Source: Candidatus Eiseniibacteriota bacterium (GTDB lineage Bacteria > Eisenbacteria > RBG-16-71-46 > CAIMUX01 > VGJL01). Taken from it: a DNA stretch of 64,000 nt. Of this stretch, positions 4,027 to 51,328 are shown piece after piece. Numbering within the stretch: the first letter of the stretch is position 1; every line of letters starts with the position of its first letter. Under the pieces are notes generated by a model. The model saw only the letters and a list, made by a program, of their open reading frames with translations. It did no database searches and was not told the DNA's origin. The stretch lies in contig CAWBWI010000001.1 in assembly GCA_963792585.1 (NCBI GenBank), forward strand, positions 1,632,001 through 1,696,000, given 5' to 3'. The translations under genes were made by a program, and so were the position numbers.

Positions 4027-4575
4027 ATGAGTCGGGTGATCCTGCTTCTGGCGATCGCGACCCTCTGCTTGGTGGCGGCCTCCTGTACGCAGAACACGAC
4101 CACTCCGCAGATTCCCGGGTCCCCGGAGTTCCAGCGCGTCATGGATCCCTCCCCCTCCGCTTCGCCCCTCAGGCAGGGTGACGCGACGATGTCAAATGCC
4201 GCCAAGAAGGCCGAAGCCAGTCAACTCATCGCGGCCGACACCGGCGGTACCGTCAACACCGGCCGCTACACGGTCACGATTCCCGCTGGCGCCCTCGCCA
4301 CCGACACGATGATCACGGTCCAGGTGAAGGAGAACATGGGAATCGTGGGATGCGAACTCCTTCCCCACGGGATCACATTCGCCACGCCGGTCAAGCTGAC
4401 GATTAGCCTCACCGGCACCGACTACACCGGCATCGGGCCGGTCACGATCTTCTGGTATGACACGGCGCAGAAGGGGTGGGTCGACGTCGGCGGGACGTTC
4501 GAGCTCCCCACCTTTGAACTCTCGACCCAGCTGTCCCACTTCTCGACCTACAGGGCCGGTCGCTCCGGCTGGTAA
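4027..4575 (+). CDS. Lipoprotein with ZU5-like domain
   Basis: GGAGG SD, lipobox VAASC, 'GG.V...VTIPAGAL...ELLPHGITF..PV.L...HFS.Y' pattern. Confidence 0.7.
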   Translation: MSRVILLLAIATLCLVAASCTQNTTTPQIPGSPEFQRVMDPSPSASPLRQGDATMSNAAKKAEASQLIAADTGGTVNTGRYTVTIPAGALATDTMITVQVKENMGIVGCELLPHGITFATPVKLTISLTGTDYTGIGPVTIFWYDTAQKGWVDVGGTFELPTFELSTQLSHFSTYRAGRSGW

Positions 4576-4601
4576 TCCGCCCCTCAAGGAGGTGCTCCCC
4601 A

Positions 4602-4638
4602 CCGCGCCCGCCCACTCCTCCCCCCTGGGCGGGCGCGG
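4602..4638. other. 13-bp-stem intergenic hairpin
   Basis: ccgcgcccgccca-N11-tgggcgggcgcgg; no U-tract. Confidence 0.5.
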
Positions 4639-4698
4639 ACAATTCCCCCCCGCCCGTGCGAGAATGGGTTCTCGATCCCGATCGGGAGAAAGGAACCG

Positions 4699-5745
4699 AT
4701 GGCCCATCTATTCACCCCCTTCCAGATTCGCGGCCTGACGCTCCGCAACCGCATCGTCCTCTCGCCGATGTGCATGTACTCCGCCGACACGGACGGGCAT
4801 GCGCGCGACTGGCACCTCGTGCACCTCGGCGCGCGCGCGTCGGGCGGCTGCGGGCTGGTCATCACTGAAGCCGCCTCCGTCGAGCCGCGCGGGCGCATCA
4901 GCATCAACGACCTCGGCCTCTGGAACGATGATCAGATCTCCCCTCTCGCAAAGGTCGTTCAGTTCAGTCACGAGCAGGGCGCGTCGATCGGCGTGCAACT
5001 CGCGCACGCCGGACGCAAGGCGTTCTCCCCGCAGAAAGGGGAAGGGCCGCAGGCGGGCGTCGCGCCGAGCGCGATTCCGTTCGCCGAGGGATGGAAGACG
5101 CCGCTGGAGCTGCCCGTCGAGGCGATCGATGCGCTGGTCGAATCGTGGCGCGGCGCTGCGCGGCGCGCACTCGAGGCGGGGTTCGACCTGATCGAGATCC
5201 ACCACGCGCACGGATACTTGCTCCACTCGTTCTTCTCGCCGATCGCAAACCACCGCGAGGACGCCTACGGCGGATCGTTCGACAATCGGGCGAGGCTCAC
5301 GCTGCGGGTCGCGCGCGCGATCCGGGAGGTCTGGCCCGCCGAGCGCCCGTTGTTCCTGCGCGTCTCCGCGAGCGACTGGAATGCGCAAGGGATCACCCCG
5401 GCGGACTTCTCCCGACTCGCACCCGCGCTGATCGAGGCCGGCGTCGATCTCATCGATTGCTCCTCCGGCGGGATCGTCCCCGCCCCACCACCGGCGGAGA
5501 TGGTCGGGCCCGGCTACCAGGTGCCGTTCGCTTCGGAGATCCGGCGCGACGGGAGGATCCCGACGATGGCCGTCGGGCTCATCACCGGCCCTGGGCAGGC
5601 CGAGGCGATCCTCGCGGGCGGTCATGCCGATCTCGTCGCATTGGGCCGCGAGTTGCTGCGCGATCCTCACTGGCCGCTGCGGGCGGCGCGGGCGCTCGGG
5701 GTCGACATCGAGTGGCCCCGGCAGTATCTCCGCGGGAAGCCGTGA
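4699..5745 (+). CDS. NADH:flavin oxidoreductase / old yellow enzyme (NamA/YqjM type)
   Basis: LRNRIVLSPMCMYS, QLAHAGRKA, IHHAHGYLL, GRELLRDPHWP. Confidence 0.95.
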   Translation: MAHLFTPFQIRGLTLRNRIVLSPMCMYSADTDGHARDWHLVHLGARASGGCGLVITEAASVEPRGRISINDLGLWNDDQISPLAKVVQFSHEQGASIGVQLAHAGRKAFSPQKGEGPQAGVAPSAIPFAEGWKTPLELPVEAIDALVESWRGAARRALEAGFDLIEIHHAHGYLLHSFFSPIANHREDAYGGSFDNRARLTLRVARAIREVWPAERPLFLRVSASDWNAQGITPADFSRLAPALIEAGVDLIDCSSGGIVPAPPPAEMVGPGYQVPFASEIRRDGRIPTMAVGLITGPGQAEAILAGGHADLVALGRELLRDPHWPLRAARALGVDIEWPRQYLRGKP

Positions 5746-36819: not shown

Positions 36820-39420
36820 ATGATCGCAAAGACGATCCAGGCGGCCGCGCTTTCGGTAGCAACTCTTGTCCTCATCCTCTTCGCGGTCGCTCCGCTCGCC
36901 GATGGCAAGCCCGACACGTCGGGCAAGTCCGTCGAGTCGAGCATCGCCACCAAGCTCGGTGACTCCGGCAGCCCCACCAAACCAGGCGAATCCGGCAGCC
37001 CCACCGAGCCCGGTGAACCCACCAAGTCCTCCACGCCCGCGGAACCGTGGGAAGAAGGCGAAGACGGCGGCCCCCAGCGCTCGATCGACTACTTCAACCA
37101 GTGGATCGGTGAGCCGCTCACTCCCGAACGGCTCCATCAGATGTGGGATGAGGTTCTCGCCACTCCGTCCGAGCCGCCCGCGGGGGCGCAGGACTTCGTC
37201 AACTCGTGGGAGCTCATCGGTCCGCTCTACAGCGTGAACCCGGGCAGCGGATACATGACGGGTCGCGTGCGCGACATCGAAGCATCGACGACTCGTGTGC
37301 TCGCGGCCAGCGGCGGTCTCTGGCGATTCCACTTCGGGCCGATTCCCATGACGGAATCGATCCCCGCGAGCTGGTTCGGCAGCTTCTCGTCGAAGCCGGG
37401 CGATTCGAACACGATCCTGGTCGGCACCGGGGAATACCTCATCGGGTCGGGCACGGGGCTGTACAAGACACTCGATGGCGGCGCGACCTGGATGCACGCC
37501 TACATGACCCCGGAGCCGGCCCAGTTCCACAAGGTCCGCTGGTCGCCGACGGGCGCGGTCGCCTATGCGGCGACCACGAGCGGCTTCTACCGTTCCACAG
37601 ATGGAGGCTTGGTCTGGAGCCGCACGCTCACGGCCAACGTCACCGACCTCTCCACCGACGACAGCGGCTACTACCCGAACCTGGTCTACGCCTGTGTCTA
37701 CAACGACGGCCTCCACCGTTCGAACGATGCGGGAGTGACCTGGAGCAAGATGACGGATGGAGGCATCCCGCTCACCGGGACGCAGGAAGGAGCGGTCAGC
37801 ACCCCGGCCCACTCCCCATTCGTCCCTGGCTGGATCTACGTCTCGTTCGTGAACGCGGGGGTCTGGCGCTCGACCGACGGCGGCGCGACGTGGGCGAACA
37901 TCACGCCCGCGTCGGATCCCCACCGTTTCTGGTACGCGAACGTGATCGTCGCAGATCGTTGGGAGAACAACTACGTCCTGCTCGGCGGCGTGGGCGCGAG
38001 GGTCTCGGCCGACGGGGGCGCCACCTGGACCGCGCTCGTCACCCCTAATCTCCACGCCGACTATCACGCCTTCTCCTGGAACTCCGACGGCGTCGGGGTC
38101 TGGGCGGGCAATGACGGCGGTTGGTTCCACTCCACCGATCACGGTTTCACCTGGGATTCTTCCGCCAACGTGATGCCGATCACTCAGTTCTACAACATCG
38201 ACTGCGAGAAGTCCGAGATCGGATACATGATCGGCGGGACGCAGGACAACGACCTCGTTTACACCCCCACGCAGGACCTCTTCTGGAGCGACAAGGGCGA
38301 GGGGGACGGTGCGGGGGTCTCCGTCGATCTCTACACGCTCGGCCGGATGTGGGGCATGCACGGTGTATTCGGCGGCAATCTGAGCTACCACCGCGAGCGG
38401 ACCACCAACGGCGGCGTCAGTTGGCAGGAGGTCGACAACGGGATCGACCCGAACACGAACGCCGGCGTGATCCGCGGGGACAATGGGTTCAACCCGTGGC
38501 TGATCACGAGCGCGGGTCCGCACGTCTACGACTCTGTCGACCTTGGCGACACCTGGACGAAGTCGAACACGACGCCCTTCCCCTCCAACATCGCGAACCT
38601 GACCTCCTCCACGCGCGTCAATCCCAACGCGGTCGCCTATGCCTGCATGGCGGGCGTCGTCGGCGGGCAGTCTCTCTTCGTCCGGGACGGAGGCGTTTGG
38701 GTCGACCGCTCGGCGGGGCTGCCCGTGGGGTACACGGTCCGCAAGGTCGTTCCGCATCCCTGGTCCGGCAATTACGCCGACGAGGCGTGGGCGTTGATGA
38801 ACGGAATCAGCAACCCCGGCCAGAAGATCTATCACACGACAAACCGCGGGGTCACATGGACGAACGCCACCGGCGATCTACCCAACGTCCCAGTCGGCGA
38901 CCTCGTCGTTAATCCCCGATCGACGAACCAGCTCGTTCTCGGGTCGATGCTCGGCTGCTACCGCTCGATCGACGGCGGCGCCCACTGGGAGCGGTGGAAC
39001 AACGGGCTGCCCCCGTCGGTCATGGTCACCGAGATGTCCTACATCGACCTCACGCCTTCCGACGGTCCGTTCTACGTGGTGGCGGCGACGCACGGCCGCT
39101 CGGCGTGGAGGCGCATCATCCTGGGGACCGATCCGGCGGCCGTGGAGAATGCCGGGGCCCCGCTTCCTCTCGACCTATCCATTGCGAATCCCGTCGTCGA
39201 GCGCGCGACGTTGCAGTTCTTTCTCCCTCAGGCGGGACCGGCGCGGATCGAAGTCTACGATGTGCGCGGCGAGCGGGTCGCTACCGTCCTCGACGCGACC
39301 GTCTCGCAAGGTCGCCACGAGATCGAGCTCGACGGGCGCACGCTTGCCCCGGGTGTGTTCTTCTGTCGCCTCGATAGCGGCGACCGCACGGTTGTGAGGA
39401 AGATCACCGTGGTGCGGTGA
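36820..39420 (+). CDS. Secreted BNR/Asp-box (sortilin/YCF48-like) beta-propeller protein with T9SS/FlgD-like tail
   Basis: Repeated S.DGG.TW boxes, HADYH, GNDGG, GGTQDN, ATHGRSAW; 27-bp N-terminal repeats (GDSGSPT/GESGSPT). Confidence 0.88.
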   Translation: MIAKTIQAAALSVATLVLILFAVAPLADGKPDTSGKSVESSIATKLGDSGSPTKPGESGSPTEPGEPTKSSTPAEPWEEGEDGGPQRSIDYFNQWIGEPLTPERLHQMWDEVLATPSEPPAGAQDFVNSWELIGPLYSVNPGSGYMTGRVRDIEASTTRVLAASGGLWRFHFGPIPMTESIPASWFGSFSSKPGDSNTILVGTGEYLIGSGTGLYKTLDGGATWMHAYMTPEPAQFHKVRWSPTGAVAYAATTSGFYRSTDGGLVWSRTLTANVTDLSTDDSGYYPNLVYACVYNDGLHRSNDAGVTWSKMTDGGIPLTGTQEGAVSTPAHSPFVPGWIYVSFVNAGVWRSTDGGATWANITPASDPHRFWYANVIVADRWENNYVLLGGVGARVSADGGATWTALVTPNLHADYHAFSWNSDGVGVWAGNDGGWFHSTDHGFTWDSSANVMPITQFYNIDCEKSEIGYMIGGTQDNDLVYTPTQDLFWSDKGEGDGAGVSVDLYTLGRMWGMHGVFGGNLSYHRERTTNGGVSWQEVDNGIDPNTNAGVIRGDNGFNPWLITSAGPHVYDSVDLGDTWTKSNTTPFPSNIANLTSSTRVNPNAVAYACMAGVVGGQSLFVRDGGVWVDRSAGLPVGYTVRKVVPHPWSGNYADEAWALMNGISNPGQKIYHTTNRGVTWTNATGDLPNVPVGDLVVNPRSTNQLVLGSMLGCYRSIDGGAHWERWNNGLPPSVMVTEMSYIDLTPSDGPFYVVAATHGRSAWRRIILGTDPAAVENAGAPLPLDLSIANPVVERATLQFFLPQAGPARIEVYDVRGERVATVLDATVSQGRHEIELDGRTLAPGVFFCRLDSGDRTVVRKITVVR

Positions 39421-39666
39421 TTGGAGCAGTGAGTGCGGCATAAGCCGGTGATCGGAGCCGGGAGGACAGGGACGTCTTCTCGGCTCCGGCGTTTGCGGCA
39501 CGCACGCATGCGCGGGCCGACCGCCCACTCACAGTCGGAAGATAAGAAGTCGCTCTCGGCCGACCCACAACCCCGCGAATCCCGTGACTCAGCGGGAACA
39601 TCGGCGTATGATTGCCGTTGTCAAAATCCCATGGAGAATTCTCGGGGTTCCACCGAGGAGGGCTCG

Positions 39667-41889
39667 ATGCGCCGCGCACTTCTGTTTGTCTTCCTTCTGT
39701 CTGCACCCGGCTTGTTCGCGTCCTCGGCCCACGCCTTCACGGGCCATCCGACGGGTCCGTCCACCGTGGCGATCAACTCCGTCCTGGCATCGCCGTGGAC
39801 GGACGGCGAGTGGTACGCGGGTTCGGCCAACACCGTTTATCGCTATAGCCCGGCGACCGACGCTTGGACTTCCTCCGGCGACGGGCTTCCGTTCGGGCAG
39901 GTCACGAGCCTCGTCGGTGGTCCAAACATGTTCGGGCTGCTCTACTGCGCCGTCCCTGCGCAGGGCGCCTGCCGGTCGACGGACTACGGCGGGTCCTGGA
40001 TCGGGATCAATAACGGACTCGACAACCTGAACGTCTCCGCGCTCGCACTCGATCCATCGCACCCGCACAACGTCTTCGCCGCCACGGGCGCGGGGGTCTA
40101 CAAGAGCACGAACAGCGGCGACACGTGGATCGCGGGCGGACTTGCGGGCAAGCCGGTCCTCGACATCGCCTTCGGTTCGAGCGGCACCACGTATGCGTGG
40201 GCCTCGGTCTCCGGCGAGGGGATCTACCGGACTTCTGACCACGGAGCGACCTGGAACATCGCTTCCAACGGGATGACGGGAGAGAAGATCTTCCACGACG
40301 TAAAGGTCCAGTTGTACGGACACATCTACGCGGTGGGCCGGGGGTGCTTCCGCTCGACGAACGGAGGCGACTCGTGGACCGCCTTCGGCGCGGAGTACGG
40401 GTCTCCCTACACCGAGGTCTGGGAGATCGCCGGGCGACCGAACGACCCGCACCAGGTCGCCGTCGCGACTCTAGGAAGCGGCGTCTGGCGGTCGACGGAT
40501 GGCGGCGTCACCTGGGCGCCGATCCCGCCCCCCTGCACCGGTCACGAGTACCTGGCGATCGCCTCGCGCTTCTTCGACACCGGCGAGGTTCTCGTGGGCG
40601 GATACGGCGGCGAGATCTTCCGCTCTGACGCCTTCGGCGACGCCTGGCACTGGTGCAACCGTGGGATCTCCACGGCGATCGTCTTCTCGATGGCCGCGCA
40701 CGGGGAACGCTGGCTGGCGGGAACCGAGCGCGGGATCTACGTCAGCGAGAACTCCGGCTTCGACTGGGAGACTTCGGACCTGGTGTTTGACGTCGGCGCG
40801 GAGGCCTTCACCGTCGTCTTCGCGCCGGGAGACGGGATGACGGCCTGGTGCGGGACGGCTTCCCTCGACGCGGGCGAGATCTACAAGAGCGTCGACGGCG
40901 GCCATCACTGGACACCCGTTCGCGCGACCGCGGGGAGCATGAAGGCTCTGGCTGTGGATCCAGTCGATCCGTCACGAGTTTACGCGGGGTACACCTGCAA
41001 CCTGGTCCGCACGACCGACGGCGGGTCGAGCTGGATCGTCCAGAGCTTGGACGGGGTCTGCGTCAACGCGCTGCAGGTGATCGAGGCGACGCCGTCGATC
41101 ATCCTGGCCGGCACGAACAACGGGATCTGGCGCAGCACGAACTACGGAGATACGTGGGAGCAGGTCGGCCTCACCGGCACGCTAGTTCTCGACATCTCCG
41201 CGGATGCGAGCGTGGCGAGCCGCTTCTTTGCCGCGACCATCGGTTCCCGCGTCCATGTAACGAACGACTTCGGCGTCACCTGGTCCCCCTTCGGCGGGAA
41301 CGACCTGCCCGTCAATGTCTACTCGGTCGACGGCATGACGCCGGCGGCGGGCGTGCTCGCGGGAACGGAGGCCAACGGGATCTGGCGGTACACGGGATCG
41401 GACTGGGCACAGCTTCCCACTGAGGAGCAACCGAACGCGAGTGGAATCCTCTGCTTCGTGGGCGGGATCGATGGTGGGCGGTTCCTGGCGGGCACCTACG
41501 GCGCGGGGGTGTGGGACTACATCGTGAATCCGTCCTTGGTCGAGGATCTGGGCGGCAAACGTTTGCCGCTGAAGCTCGCGGTGACCGGTTCGCCTGGGAG
41601 CGGGCCGTTCCGGATGGAGTTGGCGGGCGGCACAGTGGCGTCGGGGCGCGCGGCAACGCGCAGCGAGACGGCTGGGGCCACAGCGGGGCGCGTCGAGATC
41701 CTCGATGCACTCGGACGCACCGTGCGCGTGATCGACACGGCGGGGCCGGGTGCGCCCGGCGCCGCTTCCTCGACCTGGGATGGACGCGATACTCACGGCG
41801 ACGATGTTCCCGCCGGGATCTACTTCGTGCGGGCGCGCGTCGTGGCCGGCGGTGCCGTCGCCGGAGCGAAGATCACGGTGGTGCGGTAG
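39667..41889 (+). CDS. Secreted BNR beta-propeller protein with FlgD-Ig tail
   Basis: GAGGAGG SD, signal peptide, many S.D/N.G.TW boxes, WDGRD..G...PAGIYF. Confidence 0.88.
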   Translation: MRRALLFVFLLSAPGLFASSAHAFTGHPTGPSTVAINSVLASPWTDGEWYAGSANTVYRYSPATDAWTSSGDGLPFGQVTSLVGGPNMFGLLYCAVPAQGACRSTDYGGSWIGINNGLDNLNVSALALDPSHPHNVFAATGAGVYKSTNSGDTWIAGGLAGKPVLDIAFGSSGTTYAWASVSGEGIYRTSDHGATWNIASNGMTGEKIFHDVKVQLYGHIYAVGRGCFRSTNGGDSWTAFGAEYGSPYTEVWEIAGRPNDPHQVAVATLGSGVWRSTDGGVTWAPIPPPCTGHEYLAIASRFFDTGEVLVGGYGGEIFRSDAFGDAWHWCNRGISTAIVFSMAAHGERWLAGTERGIYVSENSGFDWETSDLVFDVGAEAFTVVFAPGDGMTAWCGTASLDAGEIYKSVDGGHHWTPVRATAGSMKALAVDPVDPSRVYAGYTCNLVRTTDGGSSWIVQSLDGVCVNALQVIEATPSIILAGTNNGIWRSTNYGDTWEQVGLTGTLVLDISADASVASRFFAATIGSRVHVTNDFGVTWSPFGGNDLPVNVYSVDGMTPAAGVLAGTEANGIWRYTGSDWAQLPTEEQPNASGILCFVGGIDGGRFLAGTYGAGVWDYIVNPSLVEDLGGKRLPLKLAVTGSPGSGPFRMELAGGTVASGRAATRSETAGATAGRVEILDALGRTVRVIDTAGPGAPGAASSTWDGRDTHGDDVPAGIYFVRARVVAGGAVAGAKITVVR

Positions 41890-41990
41890 ACGGACCCTTC
41901 CACTCGGGCCGAGAAACCGGGACGCACATTGACGCGGCTCGTCCCCCCGCGGGCCGGCCCGCGAACGGACCGACCCTGGGGGGGACCTGC

Positions 41991-42599
41991 TCACGATCGT
42001 TGGTGAGCGCCCGCGAGTTCGCTCGCGCGCCCCGCGCGCGTCGCGTCGGTGACCTCGACCAGGCGGCCCGTCTTCACGTCGTAGACGTAACCGTAGATCG
42101 GGATCTCCGGTGGGACGAGCGGGTGGCGGCGGATGCGATCGACATCCTCTACCACCGACTTCTCCTGGTTCTTGATGGTCAGCCAGTTGATGAAGCGTCC
42201 TTCGTCCGATCCGCCGCCGCCACCCGGGTCCTTCCAGGCGCCGCCCTCGAGGCCCGCGGTCCGGAGACTGCTCGCCAGGAGGCCGCGAATCGTCTCGTCG
42301 TCGAAGTAGAGCATTCCGCAGTCGGAGTGATGGATGACGAACCACTCGCGCGTGCCGAGCAGCTTGTACGAGATGACGAGCGATCGGATCGCGTCGTCGC
42401 TCGCGCGGCCGCCCGCGTTGCGGATCACGTGCGCGTCGCCTTCCGCCAGCCCGGCGTACTTGGCGGGATCGAGACGAGCGTCCATGCACGTGAGGATGGC
42501 GAATTGGCGCGCCGGCGGCAGCGCGAGCTGCCCCTTGGCGCCAAACGAACTCACATAGGCGGCATTCGCTGCCAGGACTTCATGGAGGATCTTGCTCAT
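41991..42599 (-). CDS. Beta-class carbonic anhydrase, clade D (COS hydrolase-like)
   Basis: [22 protein letters not shown] zinc ligands, GYVYDVKTG. Confidence 0.93.
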
Positions 42600-42633
42600 G
42601 GTGTCAGTGCTCCCTGCTCCGATTCATTCGCTT

Positions 42634-42662
42634 AAAACAAAACGCCGGCCATGGGGCCGGCG
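42634..42662 (-). terminator. Intrinsic terminator inside the 5' leader of the beta-CA gene (attenuator)
   Basis: CGCCGGCC-CCAT-GGCCGGCG-TTTTGTTTT, ending 35 nt before the CA start. Confidence 0.88.
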
Positions 42663-42692
42663 GGTTCTCGATGAGCCTCTGGACGCTTCGCC

Positions 42693-42797
42693 CTAGATGC
42701 TAGGCGTCCTCCCGCCGGCACACCCTCGGCGACAACAACAAGCGCCCAAGCTGTTGCCATACAACACGTTGTGGGTCCGATGGGTGAGATTCAACAT
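42693..42797 (-). CDS. Poly-Cys leader peptide (34 aa)
   Basis: MLNLTHRTHNVLYGNSLGACCCRRGCAGGRTPSI*; four TGT codons; below the ORF-track cutoff. Confidence 0.78.
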   Translation of the reverse strand: MLNLTHRTHNVLYGNSLGACCCRRGCAGGRTPSI

Positions 42798-42803
42798 GTT
42801 ATT

Positions 42804-42832
42804 AGCATAATGCTCAACATTAGTCAGGGCAA
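42804..42832 (-). promoter_or_regulatory. Sigma70-type promoter giving a leaderless transcript at the leader ATG
   Basis: TTGCCC-N17-TATGCT-N6-ATG. Confidence 0.68.
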
Positions 42833-42998
42833 GAGGATTCTACCGGACCCGAGAGGACGGGAAGCAACGCTGCACCGTATTGACACCCGCGCTGAGGCGA
42901 TGCAAGGATCGGTGCTCCAGTGCGAACGTCCCGGATGAACCCGAAGCAAACCCGGGATCGGTCCGGTGGACACGACCGAATGGCTCCAAGGAGGAATG

Positions 42999-43742
42999 AT
43001 GACCTGGCACCGGATGGACCGCGGATTCTCTCTCACGTTGGGGACGTTCTCCCTGCTCCTGCTCGCCCTCGCTTGGGCCCCGATCGTTCACGCCGCGGGC
43101 GGCGGCCAGGCATCGGCCGACTTCGTGATCGGTGTACCCAGCGGGGAATTCAAGGATCAGCTGGACAAGAACGGATACGGCGCCTCGGGCCGCATCGCGT
43201 GGCGGCCGCAAGGCAGTCCCATCCTCCTCGGTGTCGAGGGCGGCTTCATGGTCCTCGGCCACGAGTCGCGTCGCGAGCCGTTCAGCACCACCATCCCCGA
43301 CGTGACAGTCGAGGTCGTGACGGACAACAATCTGGTCCAGGGCGACTTTCTGCTCCGCCTTCAGCCCTCCGGTGGCGCCGTGCGTCCCTACGCCGATGGG
43401 CTCATCGGATTCAACTACCTCTTCACCAAGACGGCGATCAAGAACGCGAGCAACGATGAAGAGGTCGCGAGTTCAACGAACTTCGACGACACGACGATCA
43501 ACTACGGCGGCGGCGGGGGTTTGATGTTCGTCGTCTACACGGGCAAGAAGGCGGAGACGCCCGGAAAGTCCGACGTGAAGAACGTCATGATCGACGTGGG
43601 GGTTCGTTACATGGCGGGCGGCGAGGCGCGCTATCTCAAGAAGGGCTCCATCCGCCGGGAAGAAGGCCGTGTCCGCTACCGCGTCAGCGAATCGAAGACC
43701 GACCTCGTCACTATCCGGATCGGCGCGGCGGTGGAGTTCTAG
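42999..43742 (+). CDS. Outer-membrane beta-barrel protein (OmpA-barrel-like)
   Basis: AAGGAGG SD, signal peptide, VRPY, YGGGGG, terminal Phe (AAVEF). Confidence 0.75.
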   Translation: MTWHRMDRGFSLTLGTFSLLLLALAWAPIVHAAGGGQASADFVIGVPSGEFKDQLDKNGYGASGRIAWRPQGSPILLGVEGGFMVLGHESRREPFSTTIPDVTVEVVTDNNLVQGDFLLRLQPSGGAVRPYADGLIGFNYLFTKTAIKNASNDEEVASSTNFDDTTINYGGGGGLMFVVYTGKKAETPGKSDVKNVMIDVGVRYMAGGEARYLKKGSIRREEGRVRYRVSESKTDLVTIRIGAAVEF

Positions 43743-43955
43743 AGACCGACCGTGAGTCCCAGCGGGACGCGGCGGGACGGCCCCCGCCGCGATCCCCAAG
43801 CCCACACTACAGCCTCCTTGTAGCAACGAGAATGTGTTCACAATCAATTCCTCACAATCGCCTTGTCCTCAAGCAATAAAACTCCATAGGATCCTCGGTT
43901 CGCTGAATACGGCCGCCGCGACGCGATTGACATGAAATCCCAAGGAGGGGCGACC

Positions 43956-44756
43956 GTGGCCAAGGAACAGGACAAGATCAGTCAAACTTTGAAGCAACTC
44001 GCCGAACAGGCGCGTTTGGATTCGATCGGCAGCATCGACTACCTCACGAACGCCAAGGCGATCGCTCTCGCCGACGGCAAGGTCCAGGATGCCATCAAGG
44101 AAGTTCTGAAACGAGACATGCGACTGACGGAGATTCGCCCCATGCGCGGCTTCGGCTCCGGCCTCATGTCCTTCCCCATCCAATTGGTATTCCGTTCGGG
44201 AACCGGTGACAGCCCGATCGATCTCGAGACCGTGTCCTTGGTCGTCACGGTGGAGATCCCCACGCGCTCGGTCAAGCGCGTCGCCGAGGCTCCCGCCGGG
44301 ATCGAGGGAGCTGCGGGGGACATCCCCTTCTCGATCGCGGCGACGGCGCACGCCCCCTATCGCGGCGCGCCGCTCACCGAACTCCAGGGCAGGACGATGC
44401 GGGAGAGCGCATTCTACGCCGGCCTCGGATTCCCCGTGGGTGCAGGTCGCCCGTCGGCGGGGCAGTGGACGATCGACGACTACAAGACCAGCGACACCCC
44501 CACGGGAACGGACACCGGGAGCACCTCCTACTCCGACGGCGTGGCCGACGACTCGGAGGTCGACGATTCGGGTTCCGACGAGCCAGTCATCGACGACCAC
44601 ATCACCGAGGGGCACCCGGGAGATCCCGGATACTGGTCGCCGTTCGATCCGGGCCGCCCTTTCGGAGGCGATCTCCCCCGACCCGGCGACCGTCCGGGTG
44701 TCGGCCCGCGACCGGATCCGCGAGGAGGCACTGCCCGCAAGCGGTCCGGACGATGA
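43956..44756 (+). CDS. Putative large graspetide precursor
   Basis: AAGGAGG SD + GTG; Thr/Ser-rich then Asp-rich segment around a DG turn; ATGA-coupled to the ATP-grasp. Confidence 0.68.
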   Translation: MAKEQDKISQTLKQLAEQARLDSIGSIDYLTNAKAIALADGKVQDAIKEVLKRDMRLTEIRPMRGFGSGLMSFPIQLVFRSGTGDSPIDLETVSLVVTVEIPTRSVKRVAEAPAGIEGAAGDIPFSIAATAHAPYRGAPLTELQGRTMRESAFYAGLGFPVGAGRPSAGQWTIDDYKTSDTPTGTDTGSTSYSDGVADDSEVDDSGSDEPVIDDHITEGHPGDPGYWSPFDPGRPFGGDLPRPGDRPGVGPRPDPRGGTARKRSGR

Positions 44757-45679
44757 TTCTCCTGATCGCGGAGCCGCAGGATGTCCACGCACGCGTGGTG
44801 GCGCGCCGCCTCGAGCTGCGCGGTGTCTCTCATGCGATCGTGAACTCAGCCGATTTTCCACAGCGCCTGAGGATCTCCGCGCGCTATGCGGATGGCCGCT
44901 TCGCGATCCGCATGGCGAACGGCTCCCCCATCGTCCAGGACGAGGAGATCCAGGGCGTCTGGTTGCGCCGATTCCACGCGCACGACATCTCGACGGCGAT
45001 CTCTGACGAGGCGGTTGCCGCATTCGCCTATCGGGAGGCGCGCGAGCTGTTCCTTGGCTGGACGGCCAGCGTGCGCAATGTCATCAATCCTCGCAGCGAG
45101 GAGTGGCGGGCGGAGCTGAAGCCGTTCCAGCTCTTCGCTGCGCAGGAAGTCGGCCTGCGAATCCCGCGAACCCTGGTCTCGAACGACCCGGCCGAGATCC
45201 ACGCGTTCGCCGACTCGCTCGGCGGCGAGGCGATCTTCAAGGTCCTCTCGGCGACACCGTTCCAGTTCACGGCAACTACGGTCCTCGAGGAACGTCATCT
45301 GGCGATGCTCGATGCCGCGCCCCTCGCGCCCACGATATTCCAGGAACGGATCCGGGCCGACCGGCACCTGCGCGTGACGGTGGTGGACGACCATGTCTTC
45401 ACGGCGGCGATCGAGCCGGTCCGCGAGGAGGGGATGCTCGACTGGAGGCTGGATCGCGACCCGAAGATGGAACCCTACGACCTACCCGAATCGATCGAGC
45501 AGGGCGTGCTGGCGTTGCGCCGCCGGCTCGGATTGCGGTTTGGGGCGATCGACATGATCCTCGACACCAAGGGCGAGTACGTATTCCTGGAGATCAACCC
45601 GGGCGGGCAGTGGCTCTTCGCCGAGATTCATGCGGGGCTGCCGATCTCGGACGCGATCGCGGATGCGCTGATCGGGTAG
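44753..45679 (+). CDS. MvdC/MvdD-family ATP-grasp peptide maturase
   Basis: KPFQL..A..VGL.IP.TL.SND, IFK, APTIFQERI, LRVTVV, DWR, FGAIDMI, FLEINPGGQWLF. Confidence 0.92.
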   Translation: MILLIAEPQDVHARVVARRLELRGVSHAIVNSADFPQRLRISARYADGRFAIRMANGSPIVQDEEIQGVWLRRFHAHDISTAISDEAVAAFAYREARELFLGWTASVRNVINPRSEEWRAELKPFQLFAAQEVGLRIPRTLVSNDPAEIHAFADSLGGEAIFKVLSATPFQFTATTVLEERHLAMLDAAPLAPTIFQERIRADRHLRVTVVDDHVFTAAIEPVREEGMLDWRLDRDPKMEPYDLPESIEQGVLALRRRLGLRFGAIDMILDTKGEYVFLEINPGGQWLFAEIHAGLPISDAIADALIG

Positions 45680-45802
45680 GCGGAACGGGACGTGGCCGCC
45701 CGTTCCCGCCGCGGAGATCCCCTGGCGGATCTGCCTGGTGCGCTCCTCGCCCCTCTGCGTTAGCCTCCCCGGAGAGCCGGCAACCCACTCCGAGGAGGAC
45801 CC

Positions 45803-47791
45803 ATGCCGCACCCCCCACAGCCCGATTTCACGAAGCTCCCGATCGATCGCGAGGATGTATGGCAAGGCGGGATGTTCCGCTTTCCCTCCTGGGTCGAGCC
45901 CCGGGGGGATCGTGCCCCCTTCCGACCCTGGCTTGCCATCTGGTGCAGCGGCGTGACCGGGCATGCGTTTTCGCCAAAGCTCGGCGAGGATCCGGCCAGA
46001 GACGCCGGTCTCCTCATCGGTGCGCTCCGGGAGACGTTTCGCAAGGCCGGCAGGGAGGCGTCCCTCCCCGCCCGACTTCAAGTGAGCGATCCTGAAGACG
46101 CAGCGATCGTTCGCGCGGCGGTCGAGGGTACCGGCGTCATCGTCGAGGTCGCCGATCGACTGGAAGCCTTCACGGAGTTCCGGGACGAGATGCGGAAGCA
46201 TGCTCGGCAGGATCAGACGATCGATCCCCTCACCGACGATCCGGAGATCAGCGTGGAGCAGGTGCGCTCATTCGCGGAGGCGGCGGCCGCCTTCTACCTC
46301 TACGAGCCCTGGGATCATTTCGACCAGGACGACCTCATCGAAATCGAGTGCGACCTTGCCGACGCGAAGCTCCGCCTGGCCACGGTCATGGGATCCGGAA
46401 ACGAGGAGTTCGGGATCTTCTTCATGGAATCGCAGGAGCAGTACGATTCAATCCTCTCGGGCACAGAGAGTGATGGAAGGATCGTCCGTCTGGGCGGAGA
46501 TTGGGGCGTCACCTTCTGCCCCCCCTACGAGATCCCCGTCGCGGAGCATGATCTCTGGGAAGACCACGGACTCCCTCTGGCGGACGCCGACGCGTACCCT
46601 TGCCCCGTGAGGATCGGCCCGAGCCGGCGGGTCGGGCGCCCCAACGCTCGCCAGCTTGCCTATTTCGAGGGACTGATGCGCGCTCTGACGCAGTCGACCG
46701 AGGACGAGATGGATTCCGGGCGATGGGAGAAGACGGTCTCCACGAGTTCGGGGATGACTACGATCCGGCTGCGTCTCCCGGGCGTCTTGGCGGACGAGGC
46801 CGGCGATCCCGCCGCGCAGTCAGGTCTGCGAACGGACCGCCGTGGTATCGAGAAGGGGATCTCGGAGATCCAGCGTTTCATGGCCACGCAGAATTTCAGC
46901 AACATCGAGGAGGCGGAGGCCGCGATCCAGTCGCGGTTCCTCGGTCGCTCGATCGACAGTTTCCCGTCCACCGCAGCCACACCACTCGAACGGGCGCAGG
47001 AGATCATGTACGACGCATTCGAGGCCCGTGGCCGGACAAGGATCAAGCTCGCTCGCCGGGCCTTGGCGATCTCGCCCGACTGCGCGGACGCATACGGCTT
47101 GCTTGCCGCGCGCACGAACAACTTGGACAAGGCGCGGGATCTCCTGAAGGAGGCGGTCGCGGCCGGCGAGCGCGCGGTCCGATCCCTCGGCATCGATGCC
47201 GGAGAGATCGCATGGGGCGATATCCGGTGTCGGCCCTACCTTCGCGCCCGCTTCGCGCTTGCGGGGGTTCTCAGAGGATTCGGAGAAGTCGAAGACGCGT
47301 TGCGGGAGTTCGTCGAGATTCTGCGAACGGACCCGGACGATCATCAGGGGGTCCGGTACGAACTGCTGACGTTGCTGCTCGAGCTCAAGAAGGACCGTGA
47401 GGCTCACGCTCTTCTCGAGCAATTCCCGGACGAGGGCGGCGCGCTGTGGCCTTACGCGCGCGCACTGCTCGCCTACAGACAGGAAGGCGGAAGCGCCGAG
47501 GCAGATCGACTGGCCGATCGCGCCCTGAAGGCGAACCCCTTCATGTGGAAGTTCCTCGCCGGGACTCAAGATCCGCCGTTCGACGTGCCGGAGGCCTATC
47601 GGCCGGGCAGCCGGGAGGAAGCGATCGTCTTCGCCGAGGATCTCGCGCCGATCTGGCAGGACACGCCGGGAGCGGCAGAGTGGATCCGGTCGCGGGGACG
47701 GAGTCGATCGAAGGAGAAGGCCGGCGGCGGGAAGTCCGGCGCCGGTGGGCGTGGGAAACCGAAAGGGCCAAAGAAGCAGAAGCCACGCTGA
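45803..47791 (+). CDS. Conserved hypothetical protein with ST7-like/TPR C-terminal region
   Basis: GAGGAGG SD; AQEIMYDAFE...ALAISPDCADAY...RPYLRAR...DP.D.QGVRY. Confidence 0.7.
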   Translation: MPHPPQPDFTKLPIDREDVWQGGMFRFPSWVEPRGDRAPFRPWLAIWCSGVTGHAFSPKLGEDPARDAGLLIGALRETFRKAGREASLPARLQVSDPEDAAIVRAAVEGTGVIVEVADRLEAFTEFRDEMRKHARQDQTIDPLTDDPEISVEQVRSFAEAAAAFYLYEPWDHFDQDDLIEIECDLADAKLRLATVMGSGNEEFGIFFMESQEQYDSILSGTESDGRIVRLGGDWGVTFCPPYEIPVAEHDLWEDHGLPLADADAYPCPVRIGPSRRVGRPNARQLAYFEGLMRALTQSTEDEMDSGRWEKTVSTSSGMTTIRLRLPGVLADEAGDPAAQSGLRTDRRGIEKGISEIQRFMATQNFSNIEEAEAAIQSRFLGRSIDSFPSTAATPLERAQEIMYDAFEARGRTRIKLARRALAISPDCADAYGLLAARTNNLDKARDLLKEAVAAGERAVRSLGIDAGEIAWGDIRCRPYLRARFALAGVLRGFGEVEDALREFVEILRTDPDDHQGVRYELLTLLLELKKDREAHALLEQFPDEGGALWPYARALLAYRQEGGSAEADRLADRALKANPFMWKFLAGTQDPPFDVPEAYRPGSREEAIVFAEDLAPIWQDTPGAAEWIRSRGRSRSKEKAGGGKSGAGGRGKPKGPKKQKPR

Positions 47792-47899
47792 ACCGCTCGA
47801 TCCGGCTTCCGGGTTTACGAGAGATTCGTTTCGCGGGGCAACCGACGCCGCTCACAGGTGCATGAAGGAATCATCCTCCGCCGAGGTGATGCTGGAGTC

Positions 47900-50800
47900 C
47901 TAGACAGGCGTATCCCCGCCAGCGACCAATCCCCGAAGCCTCTCCACCTCGCGTCTGGCGTACGGCGACTGGCAATTGGCGACGATCGAGGCGTAAGCGG
48001 CAAGCGTCTCCCGCGCCTCATCCGGCCGGCCGAGGGCGAGGAGAGTCTCGACGTGGTCCGGTCCGACAAAGAGATGAACCACCGTCGATTCCGACCTTCC
48101 CAGCATCGCGAGGGTCTCATCGATCAGACGCAGGGCCTTGTCGAACCGGCCTTGCCGGATCCGGATGTGGGCCATGCAACGCCAGGCCTCCCCCTTCATG
48201 TGCGTCAGGTCGAGGGCCTCGGCGCGCTCGATTCCCTGGAGACCGACCACCTCCGCCTCCTCCAGATGGCCGAGCTCGGCTAGGGCCCAACCGAGGTAGC
48301 AGACCAAGAGGCAGCCGAGACGGCGCTCGTCCAGGGCGTTGGCGAGCGTGATCCCTTCACGGAATTCACGCTCCGCACGATCCAGGTCCCCCAGCATACC
48401 CGCGCACAGCCCCGCGTACATGTACGACCATGCCAGTCGCTCGCGCGAGTGCATCCGCCGAGCGATCTCGCGTTCCCGATCGGCGTAGACGAGTCCTTCC
48501 TTCCACTCGCCCGTGCTGACCGCATCTTCTCCCAGGAACTCGTAGCCGACCGCGATGGCGAGAGGGATCCCGAACTTCTCCCCGAAGGCGATCACAGTGC
48601 GCGCCCAGCGGTCGGCGTCGTCGAAGAGGCCGAGGTGCTGATGTGCGCCGGCGAGATATGCGTAAAGCGGGATCAATGCGGCCGCCTGAGGGGAGCCGAT
48701 CTGCGTCTGATCGGGCGCCGGCGCGGCCAGGGCGGCCGCCTGCTCCATCAACTCGATCGCCTTGCGATGACGTCCGGCGAGGTGGTGGAAGCGGCCCGCG
48801 ACGGTCATCGCATAGGCGACCTCGAACGGCTCCGTCTTGGGATCGAGCAACTCGAGCGCCTGCTGGACGTAAACGAGCCCCCGGGGATCGGCGTTCGTCA
48901 CGAGCGCGCTCGCGGCCAGCGACTGCAGCCGAGCCCGGTGCAGCGGTTCGGTCGCGAGCGCGAGCGCCCGCTCGAAGTGCTCGCATGAGCCCACGAACTC
49001 GCCACGCAGCATGAACGCCCGTCCGATCGATTCTTCCAGCGCGACCTGCTCCGCGGGCAAACGGAGCGCCTCGGCGCACTCGAGCGCTCGGGTGTAGGCC
49101 GCGATCGCCTCGTCGTACGCGAAGACCTGCTCGGCTGCGGCCGCGGCCTCCTTCGCGAACGCGAGTCCCCGTTCATGATCGCCCGCCTGGATGAAGTGGT
49201 GCGCAAGCGTTTCCGCCGGCACAACGGCGCGTCGGCGGAGGAGCTCGAGCCCCTCCGCGATCCGGAGGTGGAGTCGGCGGCGACGGACCGGGTTCATCTC
49301 CTCGTAGAGGACCTCTCGGATCTTGTCGTGTGTGAAAGCGAAGGAATCGCCGCGTTCCGCGGCGATCAGTTGCGCGGCCGCCGCCTCATCGAGCGCGTCG
49401 AGGATTGCGTCCTCGCCGCGGTCGCCGGCGGCAATCACGAGCTTCTCGAAATCGAAGATCTTCCCAAGGACGGAGGCGGCGCGGAGGATCTCGTTGCACT
49501 CGGGGCGCACACGGTCGAGGCGATTGCCGATCGCGGCCTTCATGCTCTGCGGGATCGACAGCTCGGTGATCTCGCTGCGCGTCCACTCCCCACCTTCGCG
49601 CCGGACGGACCCCTGTTCGATCAGCGACTTCAGGACTTCCTCGACGAAGAACGGGTTTCCCTCGGTCTCCTTCTGAACCGCCTCCGCGAACTCGAGGCTC
49701 ACGTCCTCCCCCAGGAGCGCTCCGAGCTGCGCCCGCGTCTCCTCGACCGCAAAGCGGCGCAGGGCGATTCGGGTCGTGAGGCGTTCTCGATTCCAGTCGA
49801 CCAACGCCTTCCCGAGCGGGTGGGCCCTGTCGAGATCCGTCTCGCGGTACGACGCGGCAACGAGGAGCCGCTCCTCCCTGAGGTTCCGCATGAGATGTCC
49901 CAGGAGCCAGAGGGTGCTGGCGTCGGCCCAGTGAAGATCGTCGATGTAGAAGAGCAGGCCGCGACGCAGCGACAGCTCGCGCAGGGTCTGCGCGACCGCG
50001 TCGAAGAACAGGAGGCGCTCTTCTTGCGGCGACAGCTGGGGCCGGTCCGGGAACGGACCGAGGCGGGTTTCCAGCTCGGGAGCGAGCTTTGCGATCTGGG
50101 GCGCGTTCTCCCCGAGGAGCGCGCGCAGGGTCCCGTCGTTCGCAGTCTCACGCACCCAGCGGCGGAAGGCTTCGACGAACGGCAGATACGGGGTCGTTGC
50201 CTCGTACTCGTAGCAGCCCCCGGCCATGACGATCGCGCCGTCGAGTGCTCCCTGGATCTGGAGTTCCCGGGCGAGCCGGGTCTTTCCCGCACCGGGCTCT
50301 CCGCTCACGAGAACGCAGTGGCCGCGCCGGTCGAGCGCCCGCCTCCAAAGATCCCGCGCTTCGGACAACTCGCGGGAGCGTCCGACGAGACGACCTCGCG
50401 AAAGGGCGTCCAGAAGCGCCACGGCGCCGGTATCCCCCGTCGTCGCGACGGCCGGAGCGGCGAGCGCATCCCGCAGCGCGGCCGCAGTCTCGGCGGCGGT
50501 CGCGAAGCGCTGCTCGGGATTCTTGGCGAGGAGGCGCAGGATGACACTCTCGATCGTCACCGGCAGGTCGGGCCGGATCACGCGGGGTGGGACGACGGGC
50601 GCGTGAACGTGCTGCGAGATGACGGCGAGCGGATCGTCGCCCGTGAATGGAAGACGTCCCGTGGTCAGCTCATAGAGGACGACACCCAAGGCGTAGAGGT
50701 CGGCGCGACCGTCGATGGAACGCCCCAGCGCCTGTTCGGGAGCCATGTACCCCACACTGCCCGCGATCCCTTCGGCATGGGTCAGGGAGGAATCGCGCAC

Positions 50801-51328
50801 GGGCATCGCAATCCCAAGGTCGGCGAGCTTGATGTTCGTGCGCCCGTCACCCTCGACGAGAAGTACGTTCTCCGGCTTCAGATCGCGGTGTACCAGATGG
50901 TGGCTGTGGGCATGCTCGAGCGCTTCGCAGACCTGGCAGCCGATGTCGACGATCCCCGAAAGGTCCTGCGGCGCAACCTGGCGGAGGGTCCTCCCGAGCA
51001 CGAGCTCCATCACGAAGAATGGCACGCCATGCTCCTCACCGACGTCGTGCACCGCCACCACGCGCGGGTGGTTCAGCGCCGCAGCCGCGCGGGCCTCACT
51101 CAGGAGACGGCCGCGCGCGTTGGGACTCGAGGCCGTCTCGGGGAGCACTTTGATCGCCACCTCCCGCTTCAGCTCGAGATCGGTGGCACGGAAGACGATG
51201 CCCATCCCCCCTCGCCCGAGTTCCGAGTCGAGGCGGTAGCGCCCGCGCAATACGACCCCCGGGACGAGGCGGATTCCGGCGATCGCTCTTGAATCGGTGA
51301 CGCGGGTCTCTTCGGGATCGGGATTCAT
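47900..51328 (-). CDS. Ser/Thr kinase - STAND ATPase (AAA_16) - TPR protein
   Basis: LGRGGMG, HRDLKPEN, DLG, YMAPEQ; GEPGAGKT, IDDLHWAD, GNPFF, FTHDKIRE; TPRs. Confidence 0.95.
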   Translation of the reverse strand: MNPDPEETRVTDSRAIAGIRLVPGVVLRGRYRLDSELGRGGMGIVFRATDLELKREVAIKVLPETASSPNARGRLLSEARAAAALNHPRVVAVHDVGEEHGVPFFVMELVLGRTLRQVAPQDLSGIVDIGCQVCEALEHAHSHHLVHRDLKPENVLLVEGDGRTNIKLADLGIAMPVRDSSLTHAEGIAGSVGYMAPEQALGRSIDGRADLYALGVVLYELTTGRLPFTGDDPLAVISQHVHAPVVPPRVIRPDLPVTIESVILRLLAKNPEQRFATAAETAAALRDALAAPAVATTGDTGAVALLDALSRGRLVGRSRELSEARDLWRRALDRRGHCVLVSGEPGAGKTRLARELQIQGALDGAIVMAGGCYEYEATTPYLPFVEAFRRWVRETANDGTLRALLGENAPQIAKLAPELETRLGPFPDRPQLSPQEERLLFFDAVAQTLRELSLRRGLLFYIDDLHWADASTLWLLGHLMRNLREERLLVAASYRETDLDRAHPLGKALVDWNRERLTTRIALRRFAVEETRAQLGALLGEDVSLEFAEAVQKETEGNPFFVEEVLKSLIEQGSVRREGGEWTRSEITELSIPQSMKAAIGNRLDRVRPECNEILRAASVLGKIFDFEKLVIAAGDRGEDAILDALDEAAAAQLIAAERGDSFAFTHDKIREVLYEEMNPVRRRRLHLRIAEGLELLRRRAVVPAETLAHHFIQAGDHERGLAFAKEAAAAAEQVFAYDEAIAAYTRALECAEALRLPAEQVALEESIGRAFMLRGEFVGSCEHFERALALATEPLHRARLQSLAASALVTNADPRGLVYVQQALELLDPKTEPFEVAYAMTVAGRFHHLAGRHRKAIELMEQAAALAAPAPDQTQIGSPQAAALIPLYAYLAGAHQHLGLFDDADRWARTVIAFGEKFGIPLAIAVGYEFLGEDAVSTGEWKEGLVYADREREIARRMHSRERLAWSYMYAGLCAGMLGDLDRAEREFREGITLANALDERRLGCLLVCYLGWALAELGHLEEAEVVGLQGIERAEALDLTHMKGEAWRCMAHIRIRQGRFDKALRLIDETLAMLGRSESTVVHLFVGPDHVETLLALGRPDEARETLAAYASIVANCQSPYARREVERLRGLVAGGDTPV

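Follow-up and report, generated by a model that had tools for sequence, protein, structure and literature searches.

Background

Graspimiditides (fuscimiditide ThfA/ThfB, amycolimiditide and albusimiditide; group 13) are made with a single ATP-grasp ligase, and their core architecture has been read as nested esters (bioRxiv 2023.06.21.545981). Larger systems are described by Carter et al. (2026), who report a precursor of 22 kDa for corallotide, groups with long precursors (34, 35 and 41), and one group linked to proteases (32) (PMC13097080). The survey of Makarova et al. limited its candidates to 150 aa and, as described there, predicted no precursor for the peptidase-linked branches 7 and 8 (PMC8939145). 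In the graspetide ligase PsnB, Arg213 and the DFR loop are essential (bioRxiv 2021.03.09.434688). The domain of unknown function (DUF) of cyanobactin PatG is conserved in cyanobactin proteases, and no function has been assigned to it since its structure was solved in 2014. Binding of the DUF to its own precursor, PatE, was not observed, homo- or heterodimerisation was proposed, and the His/Asp patch with which PatG binds Zn lacks conservation even within PatA/PatG (PMC4259220).

Here we describe a two-gene locus (43956..45679) in a stretch of 64,000 nucleotides (the window, to which all coordinates refer) of a Candidatus Eiseniibacteriota genome, in which the gene of a 266-aa protein is directly followed by the gene of an ATP-grasp ligase. 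The system is probably a new graspetide group, marked by an internal leader behind a domain that resembles the C-terminal half of the PatG DUF (PatG_C).

Organization of the locus

The features of precursor and ligase given below are located on the plus strand. A Shine-Dalgarno-like AAGGAGG (43942..43948) is found 7 nt before the GTG start of the predicted graspetide precursor (266 aa; 43956..44756), for which there was no match in Pfam, NCBIfam, the PDB sequence search or the ESM Atlas; its start residue is equivalent to that of its homologues. The precursor stop overlaps, as ATGA (44753..44756), with the start of a 308-aa graspetide synthetase (ATP-grasp; 44753..45679), and the translational coupling claimed in an earlier note on this DNA was thus confirmed. 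An ATGA-type overlap of ligase start and precursor stop is also present in both metagenome loci (L001 and L002); the gene upstream of the pair in L002 differs from that in the window while the pair is kept, which identifies the pair as a cassette. Precursor and ligase are each single-copy in the 5.4-Mb genome (84% complete). The differences between the precursor and an 88% identical relative are distributed 23/18/101 over codon positions 1/2/3 (2/2/18 for the core alone), and this third-position bias indicates that the precursor frame is coding through core and tail.

No gene for a protease, transporter or methyltransferase was found among the five ORFs scanned and three further window ORFs, in agreement with the earlier note, which had seen no protease, transporter or PIMT gene adjacent to the pair and no signal peptide; for the latter, the best N-terminal 12-mer hydropathy in the window protein is 0.3 (a crude test). 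A single C39 peptidase-like match is located ~400 kb from the cassette. Promoter- and terminator-like sites were called at neither end of the cassette; GC-rich inverted repeats without a T run are present on both sides (43764-43796 and 45679-45710), neither of them called by the terminator scan. The flanks (36820-43742 and 45803-51328) encode two BNR/sortilin-type propeller proteins with Por/FlgD-type C-terminal tails, a carbonic anhydrase, a 258-aa ORF without Pfam match, a DUF6930-TPR protein and a kinase-AAA-TPR protein; none of the flank genes was seen conserved at distant loci. For RNA, 20 runs contain small shares only; in a relative of roughly 93% identity, contigs of two RNA libraries extend over the genes as well as the spacers and flanks, and therefore give no evidence of cassette transcription.

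The ATP-grasp ligase

The ligase was matched by PF21068 (MvdD pre-ATP-grasp, E 8e-11) and PF08443 in Pfam, and by TIGR04187 as the best NCBIfam model (228 bits vs a cut-off of 350); it is also below the cut-offs of TIGR04185 (203/425 bits) and TIGR04184 (167/475 bits). All six matches of a PDB sequence search are graspetide synthetases or so annotated, the closest solved ligases being those of microviridin (MdnB, MdnC, AMdnB) and plesiocin (PsnB), with E 5e-38 to 8e-19. Invariant in 17 aligned ligases are R72/R73, K123, K163, Q197/E198, R207, D230-W231-R232, E280 and N282, of which R207 and the DWR motif are the positional counterparts of Arg213 and the DFR loop of PsnB (bioRxiv 2021.03.09.434688). 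The MvdC/D-type assignment made earlier thus holds, in the sense of a graspetide-type ligase (PF21068 plus PF08443) with intact catalytic motifs.

The precursor family and its distribution

A word-index search returned 6 proteins including the query (60-100% identity), and an exhaustive search 26 representatives at E <= 0.001; in total, about 30 relatives keep domain and leader together with a variable Thr/Ser-then-Asp core, and are annotated at most as 'hypothetical protein'. In the family alignment (24 members; excluded were two near-duplicates and five fragments, the latter with 94-150 aa), the mean majority identity is 0.53 for aa 9-110, 0.48 for aa 122-158, 0.36 for the core and 0.20 for the tail. 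The ligase follows directly after the precursor in every relative with visible context (about 20 distant homologues have none visible). Furthermore, the tail of one family member (P0051) corresponds to the start of a ligase translated in the wrong frame (38/45 residues are compatible, against at most 21 in shuffles), and four more precursor/ligase pairs were matched indirectly (P0005/P0011, P0006/P0012, P0008/P0015 and P0052/P0023). The expectation that homologues keep the ATP-grasp neighbour and a donor-before-acceptor core was therefore borne out, the former wherever context is visible and the latter in 23/24 members.

A ligase-led scan of GTDB, for which the best 80 of 383 loci were kept and the upstream ORF was scored for 77, yielded three long precursors, one broken long precursor, six short precursors of 80-150 aa (one of these, at L079, was assigned only by eye), and 56 long proteins that carry a PF-type motif C-terminally (by a motif rule). 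The three long precursors (domain-plus-leader profile, E 3e-8, 1e-5 and 4e-4), each beside a ligase, are from Anaerolineaceae (L010), Alphaproteobacteria (L014) and Hyphomicrobiales (L017). At L008 (about 4200-4950), a long precursor is broken over three frames before an intact ligase, as a pseudogene or through an assembly error; this call was made by eye, and the domain profile does not score L008.

The distribution of the cassette is patchy. The precursor was not found in samples, with many incomplete genomes, of 100 relatives, 205 other genomes of the phylum and 300 genomes of the phylum of L010 (save L010's own); plasmids and a pattern scan of GTDB likewise yielded none, and an alignment search of a 5.8-billion set added nothing new to the family. 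Genomes of the same phylum contain microviridin-like loci with paired ligases (L085-L091; G049 and G082) and a locus with a repeat-type precursor (L087; G008).

Relationships of the ligases

An IQ-TREE phylogeny of 45 ligases, with the 56 enzyme-fused loci represented by a random draw of 12, places the window ligase and those of the long and short precursors in one clade (98/96), in which the long trio branches first (100/99); the enzyme-fused loci form a separate clade (100/97), and a FastTree of 126 ligases agrees. In both trees, the broken long precursor locus L008 is labelled as short. Long and short precursors are interleaved in the tree, which implies repeated loss or gain of the domain, and since ligases of the clade are found beside domain-less precursors, the domain is presumably not needed for stapling.

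In the sister clade (L011-L083; 56/77 scored loci), the ligase is preceded by a whole enzyme with a repeat tail. Pfam assigned 9/10 of the upstream genes tested, as astacin, trypsin-like, S8 and M43 proteases and tyrosinase; Thr/Lys/Asp repeats are found at the end of these enzymes (at least two in 28/54, for one pattern). Their C-terminal PF(V/I)L(A/S)TPHH-type motif resembles the window leader (hhalign probability 62 over 14 columns). These enzymes may supply the precursors that are missing for branches 7 and 8, the peptidase-linked ones of PMC8939145, with a natural follower-type leader.

The front domain

The earlier note had described the N-terminus of the precursor as globular over ~170 aa. 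A folded domain is indeed predicted, but its folded part comprises only ~113 aa, and aa 122-158 are leader-like; both this internal leader and the likeness of the fold to the PatG DUF had been missed. For aa 1-113 (43956..44294), AlphaFold2 predicts three helices and four strands with pLDDT mostly 86-97, followed by a weaker helix (140-156) and then disorder. When compared with 48,161 chains (VIA-align), the top match of the domain is 4uvq_A (Z 9.4, rmsd 3.0, 109 aligned; next match Z 5.9), more precisely the C-terminal half of the PatG DUF (4UVQ residues 1070-1184; PF18065, PatG_C). The model of the L010 protein (24% identical) also has 4uvq as its top match (Z 7.9, 96 aligned), an alignment that shares rows with that of the window protein and whose Z alone lies in the common range of the tool.

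In profile comparison (hhalign), the family was aligned to 11 PatG_C sequences with a probability of 55% (E 1.2e-4, score 30), against a score of 11 +/- 2 (maximum 19.4) in 100 column shuffles; with a smaller mixed alignment, the probability was only 6.5%. The PatG_C alignment holds 11 of 12 matches, with one truncated match left out, from 11/151 genomes of another order, and a PF18065 search of the control genomes gave no match. At the gathering score, PF18065 also had no match in the 24 members, the three long relatives and the own genome. Foldseek returned nothing at E <= 0.001 on the PDB (4uvq at rank 3, E 0.087) and no match on BFVD.

On these models and profiles, the front domain is probably homologous to PatG_C, and a shared fold is rated higher than homology. 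The likeness comprises a fold that is shared, between predicted models, over 109/114 residues and a profile alignment in which G-S-I-D..NAKAIAL is set against N-x-G-A-T..RALNY. In contrast, identity is 6%, and the window domain is N-terminal on a precursor, lacking both the protease and the N-terminal DUF half. No mechanism follows from the likeness to PatG, because the solved DUF is itself without an assigned function and showed no binding to its precursor.

The predicted internal leader region

The predicted internal leader (aa 122-158; 44319..44429) comprises a PFSIA motif and the helix 140-156. Its family consensus is PFxLAxPS...RxxRExxF, with P124 invariant in 24 aligned members, and it fits the graspetide leader motif Phhx(1,2)h as given in PMC8939145. 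A profile of aa 120-160 matched ORFs that immediately precede related ligases (L009, E 3e-10; L008, 2e-6; L014, 3e-6), and more weakly others (L004, E 0.013; L005, L006, L007 and L010, only 0.14-0.6), where noise is represented by three unrelated matches at E 0.57-0.89. A leader-like element hence recurs in precursors of 80-150 aa beside related ligases. Across the own genome, the profile gave no other candidate (next match E 0.25).

The predicted complex of leader and ligase scored 0.56 (best control 0.00), with contacts agreeing to at least 79% and a partner pLDDT of at least 61. The mark used for this score is reached by 116/157 solved complexes and 2/215 mismatches, and at values of 0.60 or below by 18/157 and both mismatches; similar complexes have already been solved. 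The predicted complex thus weakly supports binding of the leader by the ligase.

Two of the short siblings (L004:4522-4929 and L005:1783-2178) start twin-arginine-like (SRRxIL/FL) and run into a PFALAIP leader; Pfam TAT_signal was matched for L005 only, below the cut-off (E 0.019). These two proteins suggest that the position ahead of the leader can accommodate a targeting element. At one locus of group 41 in PMC13097080, a 140-aa ORF ends in PFSI...RE..AFL like the window leader, without a core (by eye).

Predicted core and tail

The core segment described in the earlier note is present at aa 171-218 (44466..44609), beginning with Trp171 at 44466 and TIDD at 44469. It has predicted Ser/Thr donors at 172, 178, 183, 187, 189, 191 and 193, the turn G195-V-A-D-D, and Asp/Glu acceptors within 198-218, and, as was noted then, the donors precede the turn and acidic pairs recur every 5 residues behind it (D198/D199, D203/D204, D208/E209, D213/D214 and E218; acidic in 6/6 close homologues). 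The seven donors and ten acceptors are kept in 6/6 close homologues. In 23/24 members the Ser/Thr centre precedes the Asp centre (unanchored test; kin not independent), and Thr (0.127 vs 0.049, 2.6-fold) and Asp (0.134 vs 0.069, 1.9-fold) are enriched after the leader relative to before it. The common core element is G-[VIT]-[AT]-D-D, and one family member (P0060) has tandem cores.

A DG turn of the fuscimiditide/amycolimiditide kind, as earlier suggested, was not sustained: among 21 anchored cores, the residue before the turn Gly is Asp in 6 (four of these near-identical relatives) and Asn in 5, in an anchored donor/acceptor table that is partly circular, since the anchor was chosen by composition and 10/31 sequences have none. 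With Asp-Gly in only 6/21 and no peptide-type PIMT, no aspartimide is expected. Similarly, a specific nested Thr/Ser-Asp register finds no backing, for no cross-link register of equally spaced donors and acceptors, as in a sequence-wise parallel stem, beats chance (five registers with 4 pairs each; p 0.80). Ser/Thr alternate at -2, -4 and -6, which is compatible with a strand. A nested hairpin is plausible by analogy rather than derived from registers, and interlocked or fewer rings are also possible.

The core is followed by a Pro/Gly/Arg-rich tail of low pLDDT (aa 219-266; 44610..44753), in which PGDPxxWSPFDPG is kept in 6 close homologues and absent or different in most distant ones.

Proposed function and alternative explanations

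That the two genes represent a real, conserved pair of graspetide ligase and substrate is held with high confidence. The coupled genes, the intact catalytic motifs and the conserved order of domain, leader and core are the observed basis for the explanation that we favour on balance, i.e. that the ligase grips the internal leader and staples the core, with the front domain as a removable carrier that is not part of stapling. The ligase would likely grip its 266-residue partner at aa 122-158; judging from the chemistry of the family, an ATP-driven acyl-phosphate would form on Asp and be attacked by Thr/Ser to give esters, probably three to five of them, nested in a hairpin around G-V-A-D-D. The domain-less short siblings suggest that the front domain would be dispensable for modification and might act as soluble pro-domain or sorting handle. 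The stapled core might then be freed by a protease encoded elsewhere, which is the least certain step; against release of a free peptide stands a cassette without a protease, transporter or double-glycine-type processing gene.

A cassette without protease or exporter would also suit a system in which the whole protein is the product, its core stapled and never cut, with the PatG_C-like domain serving to display or oligomerise the hairpin; the conserved tail behind the core of the 6 close homologues fits such an uncut protein equally well, and the neighbour genes in the sister clade are whole enzymes with repeat tails (56/77 scored loci). However, the same ligase clade includes six short siblings in which leader and core occur without the domain, and dedicated proteases are unknown for graspimiditides too (PMC12291112), so that their absence here says little. 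This alternative is rather unlikely in our judgement, as are the roles that would exemplify it, an intracellular protease inhibitor or a metal-binding arm. A wider form of it is put forward equally tentatively: the C-terminal half of the PatG DUF might be a mobile module of two unrelated RiPP classes, here carrying an uncut ester-stapled hairpin as a finished protein, and, together with the sister clade of repeat-tailed proteases and tyrosinases bearing a C-terminal leader, the ligase lineage might constitute a system for stapling proteins, and not a peptide pathway, that length-capped precursor searches have overlooked.

The front domain is the most conserved part of the precursor, and partner-dependent graspetide ligases exist, such as with MirC in rosaritide biosynthesis (PMC13097080); the domain might hence be a built-in partner (chaperone or recognition element) needed for ligase activity, MirC-like but fused to the substrate. 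We regard this as improbable, as related ligases adjoin domain-less short precursors, no conserved extra gene was seen, and the fold match is PatG_C and not RRE or SurA. Even more remote is the explanation that the ORF is no ligase substrate, its Asp-rich stretch being a calcium-binding or low-complexity linker, and that the ligase acts on another peptide: the failure of any cross-link register to exceed chance speaks for it, but the ATGA coupling, the constant linkage, the leader common to the short precursors and the donor-before-acceptor order in 23/24 speak against it, and the leader profile yields no other candidate in the genome (next E 0.25).

With its folded domain, internal leader and long variable core, the precursor has an architecture so far uncharacterised among graspetides, and a 150-aa size filter, as described in PMC8939145, would discard it. 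The locus offers a probable relative of the PatG DUF within a small system of two genes, in which it is open to deletion and assay, with natural short siblings as controls, and a PatG-DUF-like front domain would offer a first handle on the role of the PatG domain. If the ligase naturally staples a 50-residue segment inside a protein, it would be a useful tool for protein cyclisation.

Comparison with known graspetides

The literature searched did not yield any graspetide precursor described as having a PatG-DUF-like domain (supplements and subscription papers may differ). Among the 20,891 listed rows of the precursor (RODEO) table of PMC13097080, none was matched by 13 motifs of the long family, and one ungrouped row was matched by one short-sibling motif. 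A new graspetide class, as the earlier note had it, is too strong a term, since the same chemistry is expected and large precursors have already been reported (PMC13097080).

With the graspimiditides, the window shares the single ATP-grasp ligase, a core with Thr/Ser-rich half, Gly turn and Asp-rich half, and TIGR04187 as the best ligase model, yet with a score under the cut-off. This comparison holds only loosely: the window cassette and genome are without a peptide-type PIMT (TIGR04188, best 79.7 of 380 bits and 878 kb away; genome 84% complete), Asp-Gly is not conserved, the precursor has 266 aa and a folded domain in contrast to about 10 kDa for that of albusimiditide, and the family is not confined to Actinomycetota (L010, L014 and L017).

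A large precursor is also a feature of corallotide (CorA/CorB, group 15; about 22 kDa), and the predicted group 41 (about 130-160 aa) has a strand-rich N-part and a Thr..Asp core as in the window; unlike the window, CorA has five KxxxD lactam repeats and needs tailoring genes, and group 41 is found together with a copper amine oxidase (PMC13097080); the N-part of group 41 also looks different from the window domain (by eye, 12 rows). The systems of microviridin and plesiocin differ from the window in that the latter has no TxKxPSD or TTxxxxEE core and one ligase only, whereas a PF-type leader, the conserved Arg and the D(F/W)R loop are common to MdnB/MdnC/AMdnB, PsnB and the window.
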